49,053 nt of DNA, taken from Candidatus Nanoarchaeia archaeon (GTDB lineage Archaea; Nanobdellota; Nanobdellia; Pacearchaeales; GW2011-AR1). Positions 11,298 to 15,435 of this stretch are shown here, one piece after another. The stretch's first letter is position 1. The number at the start of each line of letters is the position of its first letter. The stretch lies in assembly GCA_041501125.1 (NCBI GenBank), contig JBGQNO010000004.1:1-49053 (forward strand). Direction: 5' to 3'. The notes under the pieces were generated by a model, which had not been told where the DNA came from, made no database searches, and worked only from the letters and a program-made list of their open reading frames with translations. The translations under genes and the position numbers were made by a program.

Positions 11298-12722
11298 CTA
11301 CCCTTTCATCACTGCAATCGGCCTTAATCTCGCGACAAGATTGCCGATTCCGACTTCATGAGAAACTCTAACAACTTCATCAATATCTTTGTATGCCTGC
11401 GGCGCTTCTTCAGCAAGTCCTTTTACACTGCGAGTGGCTATTTCAATCCCTTTTTCTTTCAACTCCTGCTTTATATCCTCGCCGCGCATTTCCCGCAATG
11501 CCTGGCTTCTGCTTTCTGCCCTGCCTGCGCCGTGAGCTGTTGACGCAAAACTTAGCTCTTCTGCTTTTTTTGTGCCAACAAGAACATAACTTGAGGTCCC
11601 CATGCTTCCTGGAATAAGAACAGGCTGTCCAACTTTTCTGTACTCTTTCGGTATCTCGGTTCTGCCAGGCCCGAAACTTCGTGTAGCGCCTTTTCTATGA
11701 ATACAAAGCATTTTTTTCTTGCCATCAATTTCATATTCCTCAAACTTTGCAATATTATGGCATACATCATAAACAACTTCTGCCTTGAATTCAGGGAATA
11801 CACGTTTCATTGTCTCTCTGACTTGATGCGTTATAATCTGCTTGTTGCAGAAAGCAAAATTCGCAGCAGCGCTCATTGCTGAAAAATACTCTTTTCCAAG
11901 CTTTGAATTTATCGGCGCATTTATCAATTCCCTGTCAGGCAGGTTTGCAAATCCGTATTCTTTTTCCATTGCAACTATATAGTCGCTTGCAACCTGATGT
12001 CCAAGCCCTCTTGAGCCGCAATGTATCATAATAGTTATCTGTCCTTTCTCAAGTCCGAAAACTTTTGCAATCTCTTTATCAAAGATTTCATCAACTACTT
12101 GTATTTCAAGAAAATGATTTCCACTTCCAAGGCTTCCAATCTGTGGCGTGCCTCTTGCAATCGCCCTCGAAGAAACAAATTCAGCTTTTGCCTCTTTCAT
12201 CCTGCCATTTTCTTCTGTAAATTCCGCGTCTGCCTTGGTTCCATAGCCATTCTTGATTGCCCAGTCAATTCCCTGCTCAAGAATTTCTTTAAGCTGCTCC
12301 TTGTTTATTTTCAAGGCCGCGCCTTCGCCAACTCCTGAAGGAACATCCCTGAAAAGAGAATCAATTATTTTTTTCTTCTCGCCAGCATTGTCAATATCTT
12401 CTTTTTTTAAATTAGTCCTCAGCAGCCTGACGCTGCAGTTTATATCATAACCAATCTGTCCAGGCGATATTACTCCCTTTTCCAAATCATAAGCAGCCAC
12501 ACCACCAATACATGCGCCATAACCCATGTGGGCATCGGGCAACACAACTATATTTTTAACTACTCCTGGAAGCATGGACATATTTTTTGCTTGCTCTAAT
12601 GTTTTGTCCCTTTTTATTAAATCCATTAACTTTTCAGAAGCAAAAATTAGAATAGGAACATTCATCTTCCCAGTTCTCTCTATTTTCCACGTAAAATCAT
12701 TTACCTTCTCAACTTCAACCAT
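11298..12722 (-). CDS. rtcB: RNA ligase RtcB (tRNA-splicing ligase)
   Basis: PDAH.GYG, GYDINC, GSGNHFLE, HCGSRGLGH, HRKGATR, PGSMG, HGAGR, EEAP.AYK motifs; no intein. Confidence 0.97.
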   Translation of the reverse strand: MVEVEKVNDFTWKIERTGKMNVPILIFASEKLMDLIKRDKTLEQAKNMSMLPGVVKNIVVLPDAHMGYGACIGGVAAYDLEKGVISPGQIGYDINCSVRLLRTNLKKEDIDNAGEKKKIIDSLFRDVPSGVGEGAALKINKEQLKEILEQGIDWAIKNGYGTKADAEFTEENGRMKEAKAEFVSSRAIARGTPQIGSLGSGNHFLEIQVVDEIFDKEIAKVFGLEKGQITIMIHCGSRGLGHQVASDYIVAMEKEYGFANLPDRELINAPINSKLGKEYFSAMSAAANFAFCNKQIITHQVRETMKRVFPEFKAEVVYDVCHNIAKFEEYEIDGKKKMLCIHRKGATRSFGPGRTEIPKEYRKVGQPVLIPGSMGTSSYVLVGTKKAEELSFASTAHGAGRAESRSQALREMRGEDIKQELKEKGIEIATRSVKGLAEEAPQAYKDIDEVVRVSHEVGIGNLVARLRPIAVMKG

Positions 12723-13618
12723 TTTAGCTTCTCTCTATTATTTAATAAATTATGACTTATTAACCTTTTCACTTCTCTTTGCTTGTTTACATTAAGCTCA
12801 AAATAAATTGTTCCGATACCATTTCTTCTTTTGCCGATTCTTGATTCAAGATTATATAAATTATTTAAAGTTTTTTGCAATTTTATTAAATTCTCTTCTT
12901 TATTTGAAAATATTCTTACAACCCCGTTACTCTTTCCAATAACTGCTTTTTGTTTTAATAAATATCTCACAAATTCTTTTTGCTTATTTCTTTTTGCAGG
13001 AAATTTCCAATAATAGTCCATAAAATCATTCATTATGAGGTCTAATTTTTGCTTCTTTGATGGATGTAAAAGTCCTATTTTGTCCTTAAAATTTGAGATA
13101 TTTGCTTTTCCGTATATGTACAATGAATAAATATCCCTCGTGGATCGCTTTGTAACCTTGCAACTAATTCCTAACTTCTTGAGAGAATCCCTCACTTGAT
13201 ATATGCCTGTTTCATTAACGCAATCTGCACCAATATGCCTATTTTGATGATGTTTACAGGTAACCCAGCCCTCGCAATCAAAGTAAGCTCTCAGCCATAT
13301 TTTCAAAAGGTTTTTATTTAATTTTGGCATTCTCCATTCCCAGGAGTAAAACGAACCGAATTCATTTGTTAATTTTTCATAAATTTCCTTTGAACCAAGT
13401 CTGCATCTTTGTCCCTCAATTAGGTATGGTTTAATGCCAAAGTAATCATTAAATTTTCTTTGGAAATCCTTCAATAATACCAAACTTGTATTTCTTAATC
13501 CCATCATGTAATATTTATGTTTTTGTGTCGGTGGATTTTTAATAACATAACCGTCTGCGCAGAGATAGGCATGAACAGCAGCAAGGTTTTCATCAAATCT
13601 CATGTAATCATAAGGCAT
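12701..13618 (-). CDS. Free-standing LAGLIDADG (intein DOD-type) homing endonuclease
   Basis: Two motifs, LAAVHAYLCADG and WLRAYFDCEG, plus a block-H-like IGLLHPSKKQKL; no intein splicing termini. Confidence 0.85.
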   Translation of the reverse strand: MPYDYMRFDENLAAVHAYLCADGYVIKNPPTQKHKYYMMGLRNTSLVLLKDFQRKFNDYFGIKPYLIEGQRCRLGSKEIYEKLTNEFGSFYSWEWRMPKLNKNLLKIWLRAYFDCEGWVTCKHHQNRHIGADCVNETGIYQVRDSLKKLGISCKVTKRSTRDIYSLYIYGKANISNFKDKIGLLHPSKKQKLDLIMNDFMDYYWKFPAKRNKQKEFVRYLLKQKAVIGKSNGVVRIFSNKEENLIKLQKTLNNLYNLESRIGKRRNGIGTIYFELNVNKQREVKRLISHNLLNNREKLKWLKLRR

Positions 13619-13666
13619 TTGCTTATTTTATACCTTATGTTTATCTGGTAAATAGTAACATCTTAA

Positions 13667-13763: not shown

Positions 13764-14405
13764 ATGATTCCAAAGAAAGTTTTCTTTACAAAAGGCGTTG
13801 GAATACACAAGGACAAGCTCGCAAGCTTTGAGCTTGCTCTGAGAGATGCAGGCATAGAAAAATGCAACCTGGTTTATGTGTCAAGCATTTTTCCTCCAGG
13901 ATGTGAGATTGTTTCTAAAGAAGAGGGTGTAAAACTTTTAAAACCCGGGCAAATAACATTCTGCGTCATGGCAAAAAATGAGACAAACGAGCCTAATCGT
14001 CTGATAGCAAGTGCAATCGGATTGGCTGTCCCAACCGACAAGAACACTTATGGATATTTGTCAGAGCATCATACTTTTGGTGAGACATCAAAAAAAGCAG
14101 GCGAATACGCAGAGGACTTGGCAGCGACAATGCTTGCAACCACCCTTGGAATTCCTTTTGAATCTGACAGAGCATGGGAAGAGCGCGAGCAGGTATACAA
14201 AGCAAGTGGAAAAATATTCAAGACAACAAATATCTGCCAGTCAGATGAAGGGCATAAAGACGGACTTTGGACAACAGTGATTGCAGTCGCTGTTTTTGCT
14301 GAGGATACAACGTCAAATATAATTCCACACCCACAAAGCCAAACAGTTCTTCCTCTGCCGGATGATTCTAACCATCATTCTGTTGGCATTAACGGCAAGA
14401 AATAA
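13764..14405 (+). CDS. pdaD: Pyruvoyl-dependent arginine decarboxylase
   Basis: [22 protein letters not shown] self-cleavage site; GYLSEHH motif. Confidence 0.92.
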
Positions 14406-14419
14406 ATTTGTGTTTACAA

Positions 14420-15025
14420 CTATTTTTCATTTAATATTTTCTTCAGTTCTTTTTTAAACTTACCCATTTTTGGAAAACCAGTATATTGAATTGCATTTAA
14501 GCCTGCTTTTCTGGCATTCTCTATGTTGGGCAAATAATCATCAATGAACAGTAATTCTTCGGGTTTGATCTTTATTTCACGGACAAGCTTGTAGAATATG
14601 TCGCCTTCTGATTTCTTGCCGCAGAAATCAAATGATGTGAAAACCTTCTTGAAATCCTTGAAAGTGCCTGACTTTAAATTTGCATCAAAATGTTCTTCAT
14701 TAGTATCTGTAAATCCATAGAGCTCATACTTTTGCTTTAAACTTCTTATAAGCTTTAGCAATTCTTTATTTAATACCTTGTTTTTTATATATCTTGCCTT
14801 GTAGAAATCCACAATCTCATTAATATTTTCATTTGGAAATATATGCTGAAGGTAAGGTTTAACGCTTTTGCATTCAGCATTGGTTTTTATGTAAACTTCT
14901 TCAAGTTCTTTGTTGCCTTTTGCGAGTATACTTTTTCTATACTTTTTAATGAAGCCATGATCAACTCTGTGCCAGTCAGTCTTAAAGACAACATTTCCAA
15001 AGTCAAAGATTATTGCTTTTATCAT
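14420..15025 (-). CDS. HAD-superfamily phosphatase
   Basis: MIKAIIFDFGNV motif I and FIDD motif IV; start refined to the ATG at 15025. Confidence 0.85.
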   Translation of the reverse strand: MIKAIIFDFGNVVFKTDWHRVDHGFIKKYRKSILAKGNKELEEVYIKTNAECKSVKPYLQHIFPNENINEIVDFYKARYIKNKVLNKELLKLIRSLKQKYELYGFTDTNEEHFDANLKSGTFKDFKKVFTSFDFCGKKSEGDIFYKLVREIKIKPEELLFIDDYLPNIENARKAGLNAIQYTGFPKMGKFKKELKKILNEK

Positions 15026-15033
15026 ACTGTTCT

Positions 15034-15435
15034 TCAAACATCCACAACTACCTGGCAAACCCACATGTCTTTTTCATGCCTGACAAACATTTCATTGTAT
15101 GTTACTGCCTTGACATCAGTCATAACTTTGTAGTTTTTTGAACTATCCCCTGAAAGTTCAGCCTCAAGTAAACCATTTTTAATTTTTACTTTTGCTGAGG
15201 CAACAAAGAAACTTTTTGTATCTAACAAGAACAAAAGCTCCTCAAGAAAATTATACAGCAGGCTCTCCTTATCATTTCCCTTTACTTTGATTTTCTCTTT
15301 GATTTTTCTGGCAACCTTTCCTTTATACATCACATTAAACATTGCCAGGGCAGAATTTACAAATGCCTTGTCCAAAGTCTTTCCAAAAGCCTGGAACTTT
15401 GCATCTGCTGTATGCTCAAGAAATTTGAATTTCAT
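15034..15435 (-). CDS. Archease (RtcB activator)
   Basis: FKFLEHTADAKF...DVKAVTYNEM...VVVDV. Confidence 0.95.
   Translation of the reverse strand: MKFKFLEHTADAKFQAFGKTLDKAFVNSALAMFNVMYKGKVARKIKEKIKVKGNDKESLLYNFLEELLFLLDTKSFFVASAKVKIKNGLLEAELSGDSSKNYKVMTDVKAVTYNEMFVRHEKDMWVCQVVVDV

Follow-up and report, generated by a model that had tools for sequence, protein, structure and literature searches.

What is the gene of an intein-type endonuclease, without the splicing domain of an intein, doing at the 5' end of an uninterrupted RNA ligase gene? The question is raised by a gene pair on the minus strand of a 49,053-nt stretch of Candidatus Nanoarchaeia archaeon DNA (contig JBGQNO010000004.1; the whole stretch is called the window), part of a DPANN assembly of 625 kb that is 88% complete. 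Open reading frame (ORF) calling, Pfam, alignment, AlphaFold2 (AF2) modeling and structure searches identify a free-standing, double-motif LAGLIDADG homing endonuclease gene (HEG) at 12701..13618 (305 aa from the ATG at 13618), followed by rtcB (RNA 3'-phosphate ligase; 11298..12722, 474 aa), which contains neither intein nor intron and matches PF01139 at full length (1-426 of 426, Pfam). The HEG 3' end (…KWLKLRR and stop) and the rtcB start (MVEVEK…) overlap by exactly 22 nt (12701..12722), possibly coupling the translation of the two genes. With a GC content of 0.308 the HEG is AT-richer than rtcB (0.415; whole window, 0.378). A preliminary description of the locus, made by reading the DNA, had proposed a free-standing intein-type endonuclease without a splicing domain, its overlap with an intein-less rtcB and its AT-richness, and all three are borne out. 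The explanation that we favor, with a probability of about 0.72, is that the pair belongs to a mobile HEG cassette that targets the P-D-x-H-x-G-Y-G-F-P codons of rtcB and represents an rtcB-specific family spread through the DPANN archaea. Below, genomes are denoted G### (G000 being the window's own), loci L###, and genera and families by g and f numbers.

The 305-aa protein matches LAGLIDADG_3 (PF14528) in two stretches (E = 1.9e-18, Pfam), and neither Pfam nor NCBIfam detects a Hint/intein splicing domain in it. It is not an intein, as the gene has its own start and stop and the adjoining RtcB is uninterrupted. Motif 1 (LAAVHAYLCADGYV) carries the catalytic D22 (13553-13555) and motif 2 (WLRAYFDCEGWV) carries E116 (13271-13273). 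Across an alignment of 46 homologues D22 and D114 are invariant, E116 is kept in at least 90%, and H16, Y18, L19, C20, G23, Y24 and V25 of motif 1 are near-invariant along with D22, as are W108, C115 and W118 of motif 2 along with D114; the window ORF is intact and contains every residue that is invariant in the family. The AF2 model (pLDDT, 92.5) has the pseudo-dimeric alpha-beta-beta-alpha-beta-beta-alpha fold with a beta-sheet DNA saddle. Its best structural matches (Foldseek, E from 3e-11 to 1e-7) include PI-PfuI (E = 3e-11), the TliVMA and PI-TkoII inteins and I-DmoI (TM-score, 0.72-0.77), with WhiA and LAGLIDADG maturases, among them the bI3 maturase, ranking lower. Judged by sequence and model, the protein is a free-standing LAGLIDADG homing endonuclease of the active type, which presumably cleaves DNA site-specifically at a long target (about 20 bp), as expected of this class.

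Residues ~200-305 (12704..13021, minus strand) form an additional alpha/beta domain of ~100 aa, modeled with pLDDT >84 and ordered alpha-beta-alpha-beta-beta-alpha-alpha, with a conserved NGxGTxYxEL hairpin. This part had been described as a degenerate LAGLIDADG-like fold; the extra domain is real, while the likeness to LAGLIDADG is doubtful, the match to LAGLIDADG_2 (E = 0.012) lying below the Pfam threshold. Profile-profile comparison with the two halves of the core found no similarity (hhalign probability <2%), which does not favor a third LAGLIDADG half. Distant relatives (E from 1e-17 to 1e-25, mostly 200-280 aa) cover only profile positions ~5-194, which indicates that the C-terminal domain is specific to the family; it is presumed to be an extra DNA-binding module.

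A word-indexed search recovered 379 homologues of ~300 aa with 53-92% identity, all from Nano-, Pace- or Woesearchaeota-type metagenome-assembled genomes (MAGs), and a hidden Markov model (HMM) scan of 1.84 billion cluster representatives gave 54 clusters at E≤1e-30. The distribution of the gene is patchy. Strong homologues occur in 9 of 151 species genomes of the window's order, 139 of which encode RtcB, and in 15 of 401 genomes of a phylum-wide sample, so that carriers make up 3-7% of genomes; presence and absence are found side by side within genera g7, g11, g17, g20 and g78. A scan of 185,579 species genomes yielded 79 loci labeled as Nano-, Woese-, Pace-, Micr-, Aenigmat- or Iainarchaeota. 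The genomic position is as constant as the presence is sporadic: all nine strong matches in the order adjoin rtcB, and nearly all of the 79 loci lie at its 5' end, the exceptions reaching a contig end. The HEG is either co-directional and directly upstream of rtcB or head-to-head with it, mostly between archease and rtcB, and in many HEG-less relatives archease is directly beside rtcB. Degenerate copies, the expectation for the cycle of a selfish gene, include G141 with an in-frame TGA, L130, L140 and L144 with frameshifts or deletions, and L089 (4259-6043), where ~1.8 kb of inserted DNA separates residue 258 of a type I-like HEG (see below) from residues 255-305. No significant HEG remnant was detected when six-frame pieces from upstream of HEG-less rtcB genes were searched with an HMM (best E = 0.069).

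The rtcB genes themselves are mosaic. Pairs drawn from 72 alleles were matched for their identity in residues 100-474 (mean 76%). Pairs of one HEG-bearing and one HEG-less allele are 51% identical across residues 1-60, compared with 68% for pairs of like state (both without or both with the HEG), and the gap is gone by about residue 70. The same break is seen within genus g17, where HEG-bearing alleles share 43-49% identity with HEG-less congeners over residues 1-50 (66-80% among the HEG-less) and 82-86% over residues 51-100 (86-96% among the HEG-less). The N-termini of HEG-bearing alleles find their best matches in other HEG-bearing N-termini, and HEG presence changes at least 18 times on a tree of residues 75-474 compared with 5 times on a tree of residues 1-67 (67 columns).

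Two rtcB haplotypes track the two HEG clades nearest to the window. Type I, to which the window belongs, has the N-terminus MVE.KKINDF.WKIEK… and the motif GYG-AC-IGG, and in 9 of 12 loci the HEG stop overlaps the rtcB start by the same 22 nt. Type II begins YKEKLKKI..YELPKEG…, carries the motif D-M-H-V-GYGFP and has no fixed overlap. In the window the type I haplotype occupies codons 1-68 (12519..12722, minus strand), with weaker linkage on to about codon 90, and it appears to be a replacement rtcB 5' end that travels with the HEG. Three genomes without the gene (G048, G034 and G052) have a type I or type II haplotype, as expected after loss of the HEG. The rtcB downstream of a type I HEG in L076 (1379-2530) aligns only over residues 1-34 and 138-474 and appears to be missing the whole metal-binding N-terminal region; either the allele is broken or, possibly, the assembly is at fault.

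If a new 5' end arrives with the HEG, what becomes of the old one? In G141 (L052) archease is followed by a 62-codon ORF, the HEG with its TGA, and an rtcB that contains an intein and has a type II N-terminus. The short ORF is a native, genus-type rtcB 5' end that stops at …LPD-K-H-K-V, and L142 has the same arrangement; both remnants run into a junction reading PD, K or a stop codon, and HKV. The rtcB codons directly before this junction motif are still recognizable in 13 loci. In 11 of them codons 1 to 18-37 are left, which lie beside the junction or are fused to it, and in L142 and L052 codons 5-65 or 9-65. In the window the junction motif is CCAGATAAACATAAGGTA (13631..13648, minus strand; P-D-K-H-K-V), apparently a vestige of the target's left half-site in rtcB, for which the native sequence is CCNGAYGCNCAYCAAGGNTAY. 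It lies ~27-47 nt 5' of the HEG start on the HEG strand, with related forms in deeper clades, and nearly every locus of type I or type II has CCNGATAAACATAAGGTA followed by the TATA-like TATTTAAA ~42 nt upstream of the HEG ATG. Among 191 loci fetched, the window included, the motif is confined to HEG-bearing loci and occurs in no HEG-free rtcB locus. Remnants and junction end at codons 66-67. Together these features suggest that the element sits inside rtcB at codons 65-68, with new codons 1 to ~68 downstream and the old 5' end decaying upstream, a model that displaced our alternative of an intergenic insertion between archease and rtcB.

The junction motif is followed by a TATA-like box, TATAAAAT in the window (13625..13632, minus strand) and TATTTAAA or AATTTATATA in most related loci. 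Two starts are available to the HEG, ATG 13618 (305 aa) and ATG 13603 (300 aa, as in almost all homologues), and the five extra residues of the longer form, MPYDY, are missing from almost all homologues. ATG 13603 also fits the conserved distance to the junction motif and the TATA-like box, and is probably the true start. The box lies at -29 to -22 relative to this ATG, a position that suggests a leaderless mRNA, and is probably the promoter of a HEG transcript starting at the ATG itself.

The site at which the haplotypes break shows the alteration expected of a resident allele. The putative target in the window comprises codons P62-G74 (PDAHMGYGACIGG; 12501..12539, minus strand), as deduced from haplotypes, remnants and intron positions in relatives (see below). 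The canonical HEG-less sequence is PDAHQGYGFPIGG, from which the window differs at M66, A70 and C71, and CCNGAYGCNCAYCAAGGNTAYGGNTTYCCNATHGGNGG is a stretch within canonical rtcB codons 58-78. The motif DAHQGYGF followed by P, S or C is found in 0 of 35 intron-less HEG-bearing alleles compared with 25 of 37 HEG-less ones, and no type I allele keeps residues 69-71 unaltered. These lines converge on the DNA encoding approximately D63-P71 (12510-12536 in the window, in altered form) as the probable region of HEG recognition and cleavage, and the resident site is presumably a cleavage-resistant version of it.

Under this model the mobile unit would have three parts: the junction motif with the TATA box, the HEG, and replacement rtcB codons 1 to ~68. 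The enzyme would cut a HEG-less rtcB at the DNA encoding ~D63-P71; the break would be repaired off the HEG-bearing allele, copying the HEG and the linked rtcB 5' segment; and the recipient's own 5' end would be pushed upstream, there to decay. The resident allele would be spared by its altered site, i.e., M66, A70 and C71 in type I and the window, D-M-H-V in type II, and a mini-intron that splits the site in deeper lineages. Like other free-standing HEGs, the gene is sporadic at one conserved position, is flanked by an apparent co-conversion tract and resides with an allele altered in its target, presumably a resistant one. From these comparisons we infer that the enzyme cleaves, where precisely it does so, that the resident allele is immune and that the TATA-like box acts as a promoter. 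The preliminary description had also suggested intronless homing with a resistant allele; the patchy presence, linked 5' haplotype, displaced remnants and degenerate copies strongly favor this reading, in which cleavage is presumed.

In deeper clades of the family, 18-41 nt interrupt rtcB between the H-x-G and G-F-P codons. Exon-exon pairing (e.g., CCUGAUGGG/CCCAUCGG) forms a helix that closes a canonical bulge-helix-bulge (BHB) motif (RNAfold). The BHB rule calls for a central helix of 4 bp flanked by two bulges of 3 nt, with cleavage after the second nucleotide of the bulge. Excision by this rule recovers the frame and D-x-H-x-G-Y-G-F-P in most of 53 distinct alleles; in the rest the automatic scoring took the wrong splice alternative, and L134 is a false positive without an insert. 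Four insertion points fall within 10 nt, two of them following H65 and Y68 and the other two within codon 66 and the Y68 codon. Based on a strict DNA pattern the inserts occur in 26 of the 401 phylum genomes (0 with a reversed control pattern), and they are strongly associated with the HEG, being present in 10 of 15 genomes with the gene and 16 of 386 without it (odds ratio 46, p = 5e-10) and in 10 of 12 HEG-bearing genomes outside the window's order. In 24 of the 26 the interrupted gene is the sole canonical rtcB, which means that expression must proceed through removal of the insert. We regard the inserts as archaeal BHB mini-introns that are predicted to be spliced, like the studied pre-mRNA intron of archaeal cbf5 (PMC2738675, PMC5829648). 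Translational bypassing or a split, two-subunit RtcB was considered less likely, as excision by canonical BHB geometry at each of the four positions yields the correct frame and an intact conserved Tyr codon. A second cluster of inserts, of 23-30 nt, lies inside the G-Y-D-I-N-C codons (L110, 4605-4720; L135, 4389-4510; L143, 917-1030), variously after Y, after D and after I, and the L110 insert fits a BHB (central helix GGUU/GACU); mini-introns may thus mark endonuclease target sites more generally.

A broader reading, to which we give slightly less than even odds, would make the active-site codons of DPANN rtcB a battleground of selfish elements, in which a cassette replaces the 5' end of the gene, BHB mini-introns have repeatedly arisen (at the four positions within 10 nt) as a site-splitting 'immunity', and RtcB must ligate its own pre-mRNA. 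If true, archaea would have their own version of collaborative homing, with splicing by proteins, and introns that bear endonuclease genes could plausibly have arisen in archaea by this route; in intron-bearing lineages RtcB expression would form a self-dependent loop.

Several observations weigh against a mobile cassette. For the closest pairs, the ratio of nonsynonymous to synonymous substitution rates (dN/dS) is 0.10-0.15 in the HEG, which is thus as strongly purified as RtcB (0.09-0.12). The sampled copies are all old (dS of at least 1, nearest homologue 92% identical), and no recent, near-identical transfer was found among species representatives. Phylogenetic independence cannot be claimed for the pair comparisons or the allele counts, and mis-binning of MAGs (e.g., G042, G048) could inflate patchiness or transfer. 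For type I, linkage persists to about residue 90, so that the haplotype boundary is less sharp than in type II. Finally, the window retains only the 18-nt junction motif of a displaced 5' end, and archease (15034..15435, minus strand), commonly the immediate upstream neighbor of rtcB, no longer adjoins the cassette there; a HAD hydrolase gene (14420-15064, minus strand) and a PvlArgDC gene (13764-14405, plus strand) lie between them.

The absence of recent transfers and the strong purifying selection leave room for a benefit to the host, and we keep a small share of probability for domestication, an unlikely explanation that nevertheless survives better than the other alternatives. The preliminary description had offered domestication, as a regulator or maturase of tRNA splicing, as its other possibility. 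An ancient LAGLIDADG insertion would have been retained for a host function, e.g., as a regulator of an rtcB/archease operon acting at the junction motif that overlaps its own TATA box, and would have been inherited mostly vertically with many losses. The dN/dS values, close to those of the presumably essential RtcB at deep (saturated) divergence, would fit this history, as would the maintenance of family length and sequence across several DPANN phyla, the 22-nt overlap (which suggests co-expression with rtcB), the divergent head-to-head layout of some clades (typical of regulators) and the conserved target-like motif over the HEG promoter; I-TevI is said to autorepress through such a motif over its promoter. 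However, a domesticated gene would hardly be confined to so few genomes and vary within genera, and pseudogenized copies occur. The catalytic acidic residues are retained, and the gene shows neither the catalytic loss nor the uniform vertical conservation of WhiA. Domestication also sits poorly with a HEG-linked haplotype that breaks at active-site codons and with displaced 5' remnants, and the linked rtcB alleles seem to avoid the canonical site rather than keep it.

The preliminary description had placed the target elsewhere, at the intein homing site SPGGVGYDIN/C, with a GQIG/CS variant making the resident allele resistant. The stretch in question, SPGQIGYDINCS, is indeed at 12432-12467 (minus strand; no intein here), and RtcB inteins at GYDIN/C, known from other archaea, are present in relatives of the same order. 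Inteins and the second cluster of mini-inserts pile up at GY/D/I/N/C in relatives, marking the site as a homing hot spot, and type I linkage reaches about residue 90. G followed by Q or E and IG marks 6 of 8 type I alleles, whereas HEG-less ones almost always lack it; it is not universal in type I, and therefore looks hitch-hiking or compensatory and is no general correlate of the HEG. The CS variant fares worse, being the majority state in HEG-free relatives, and HEG-bearing alleles with the consensus GGVGYDINC exist in type I (L072) and type II (with G061 and G074 among the HEG-bearing examples). Residues 91-100 show no HEG-linked divergence, remnants and junction end at codons 66-67 rather than 97, and it is residues 69-71 that are altered in all type I alleles. 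We consider GYDINC quite improbable as the target, which more probably lies ~30 codons upstream, at P62-C71.

Nor does the HEG resemble the endonucleases of local RtcB inteins. BLAST comparison of its protein with the endonuclease domains of six intein-bearing RtcBs of the same order gave only E>1, and the match to the NCBIfam RtcB-intein model (E = 2.5e-4) is no better than those to replication factor C (RFC) or IF-2 inteins; a recent derivation from an RtcB intein was rejected because the likeness is so weak and unspecific. The inteins in the order are ~470-510 aa long and occupy codon 97/98 (GYDIN/C) in G141, G136, G084, G022, G135 and G122 and a second site near residue 396 in G030 and G255. 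Intein and free-standing HEG occur together in G141, L081, L083, L098, L138 and G487.

The strong association with rtcB mini-introns in relatives, the existence of LAGLIDADG maturases (with the bI3 maturase among the lower-ranked structural matches) and the linkage to the tRNA-splicing genes archease and rtcB might point to a maturase-like helper that acts on RNA, aiding BHB splicing and ligation of the rtcB mini-intron or of tRNA introns without cutting DNA. Such a role is highly improbable: the window and at least 35 other HEG-bearing alleles are intron-less, 16 intron-bearing genomes lack the HEG protein, EndA and a ligase suffice for BHB splicing (PMC5829648), and the mosaic haplotype and remnants would be left unexplained. 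Equally doubtful is a decaying, inactive remnant of a past invasion with an ORF intact by chance, as the clear degeneration of some relatives, the lack of recent transfers and the rearranged surroundings of the cassette in the window are set against an intact ORF with all invariant family residues, dN/dS far below 1 across the family and a confidently folded model.

Taken as a mobile cassette, the element can be compared with known homing systems. The archaeal LAGLIDADG enzymes I-DmoI and I-Tsp061I (encoded in rRNA introns), PI-PfuI, PI-TkoII and TliVMA resemble the window's enzyme in being monomers whose LAGLIDADG_3 core contains two motifs, each with one catalytic acidic residue; unlike them, the window HEG resides in neither intron nor intein, has its own promoter-like element and carries the ~100-aa C-terminal domain. 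The closest parallel for the replaced gene end is reportedly the Allomyces macrogynus mitochondrial atp6 hybrid of Paquin, Laforest and Lang (1994), in which an endonuclease ORF and a foreign gene end displaced the native end. In both cases an endonuclease ORF would arrive with a replacement host-gene terminus and the native terminus decay nearby; the window's system differs in affecting the 5' rather than the 3' end (a mirror image), in its archaeal chromosome and LAGLIDADG enzyme, and in belonging to a family of hundreds. For the association with introns, Zeng, Bonocora and Shub (2009) are said to have described a free-standing endonuclease, F-CphI, acting with an ORF-less group I intron in cyanophage psbA. 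As in that collaborative homing (PMC6083498), the deeper lineages have an ORF-less intron, statistically associated with the adjacent HEG, in what is probably its recognition site. Unlike the psbA intron, which splices itself, theirs is a BHB mini-intron of 18-41 nt, predicted to be spliced by proteins, at four alternative positions, and since the window rtcB has no insert, an intron at the target is not found there.

Trans and collaborative homing have both been described among the types of homing (PMC2988022, PMC2790892, PMC6083498), as has intronless homing by the free-standing phage endonucleases SegF and SegG of T4 and MobE (PMC2988022, PMC2790892). Here too a HEG lies beside the targeted frame, spreads (to judge by sequence) through break repair with co-conversion of the flank, is patchy, and resides with an allele apparently protected by polymorphism. 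However, SegF, SegG and MobE are GIY-YIG or HNH enzymes of phages, and the window HEG encodes a LAGLIDADG enzyme on a cellular archaeal chromosome; its cassette would also bring a whole replacement 5' end and leave a displaced gene fragment. WhiA and the LAGLIDADG maturases likewise combine a free-standing LAGLIDADG fold with an extra C-terminal domain, but WhiA has no catalytic residues and is universal in its clade, whereas the window family keeps these residues and is sporadic.

We found no prior description of an rtcB-targeting HEG system in the literature searched, and to our knowledge no free-standing LAGLIDADG homing system would, if this one is confirmed, have been documented earlier in the cellular chromosomes of archaea. 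Confirmation would mean that DPANN archaea, in which recombination between lineages is hard to observe, undergo homing by gene-end replacement. It would also provide enzyme discovery with a natural meganuclease family whose members combine an additional DNA-binding domain with a predictable target of ~25-30 bp, and offer a testable model for the union of archaeal introns with endonuclease genes. With spliced mini-introns, rtcB would join cbf5, the main well-documented spliced mRNA of archaea (PMC2738675), and RtcB would be needed for its own synthesis. On the practical side, annotations such as "hypothetical protein", "Replication factor C small subunit" and split-rtcB calls in DPANN MAGs could be corrected.

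Some further observations concern RtcB in the order. In G042 (contig C12) and G048 (contig C4), both of family f4, the whole RtcB is 68-69% identical to that of the window (family f1), compared with 46-50% for other f4 genomes, which suggests transfer of the whole gene with the cassette or mis-binned contigs. Fourteen genomes of the window's own family (G027, G043, G065, G067, G073, G078, G086, G089, G091, G100, G102, G109, G121 and G139) lack a canonical RtcB and encode only a divergent RtcB-like protein (open frame of ~350-450 aa, 33-37% identity), and the ligase could have been replaced in them.

The window's own genome contains four more free-standing LAGLIDADG genes (L002, L003, L004 and L006), located at C1:132536-132739(-), C7:3191-3412(-), C2:36757-36981(-) and C6:10156-10377(+). 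Their open frames measure 203, 216, 324 and 382 aa, the last probably encoding ~270 aa from its first plausible start. They may represent comparable cassettes that target other intein-prone genes: one is located two genes upstream of the gene for the RFC small subunit, one is near the genes for RNase HII and SMC, and one overlaps the end of an apparent ribosomal protein L11 gene, as judged by eye.

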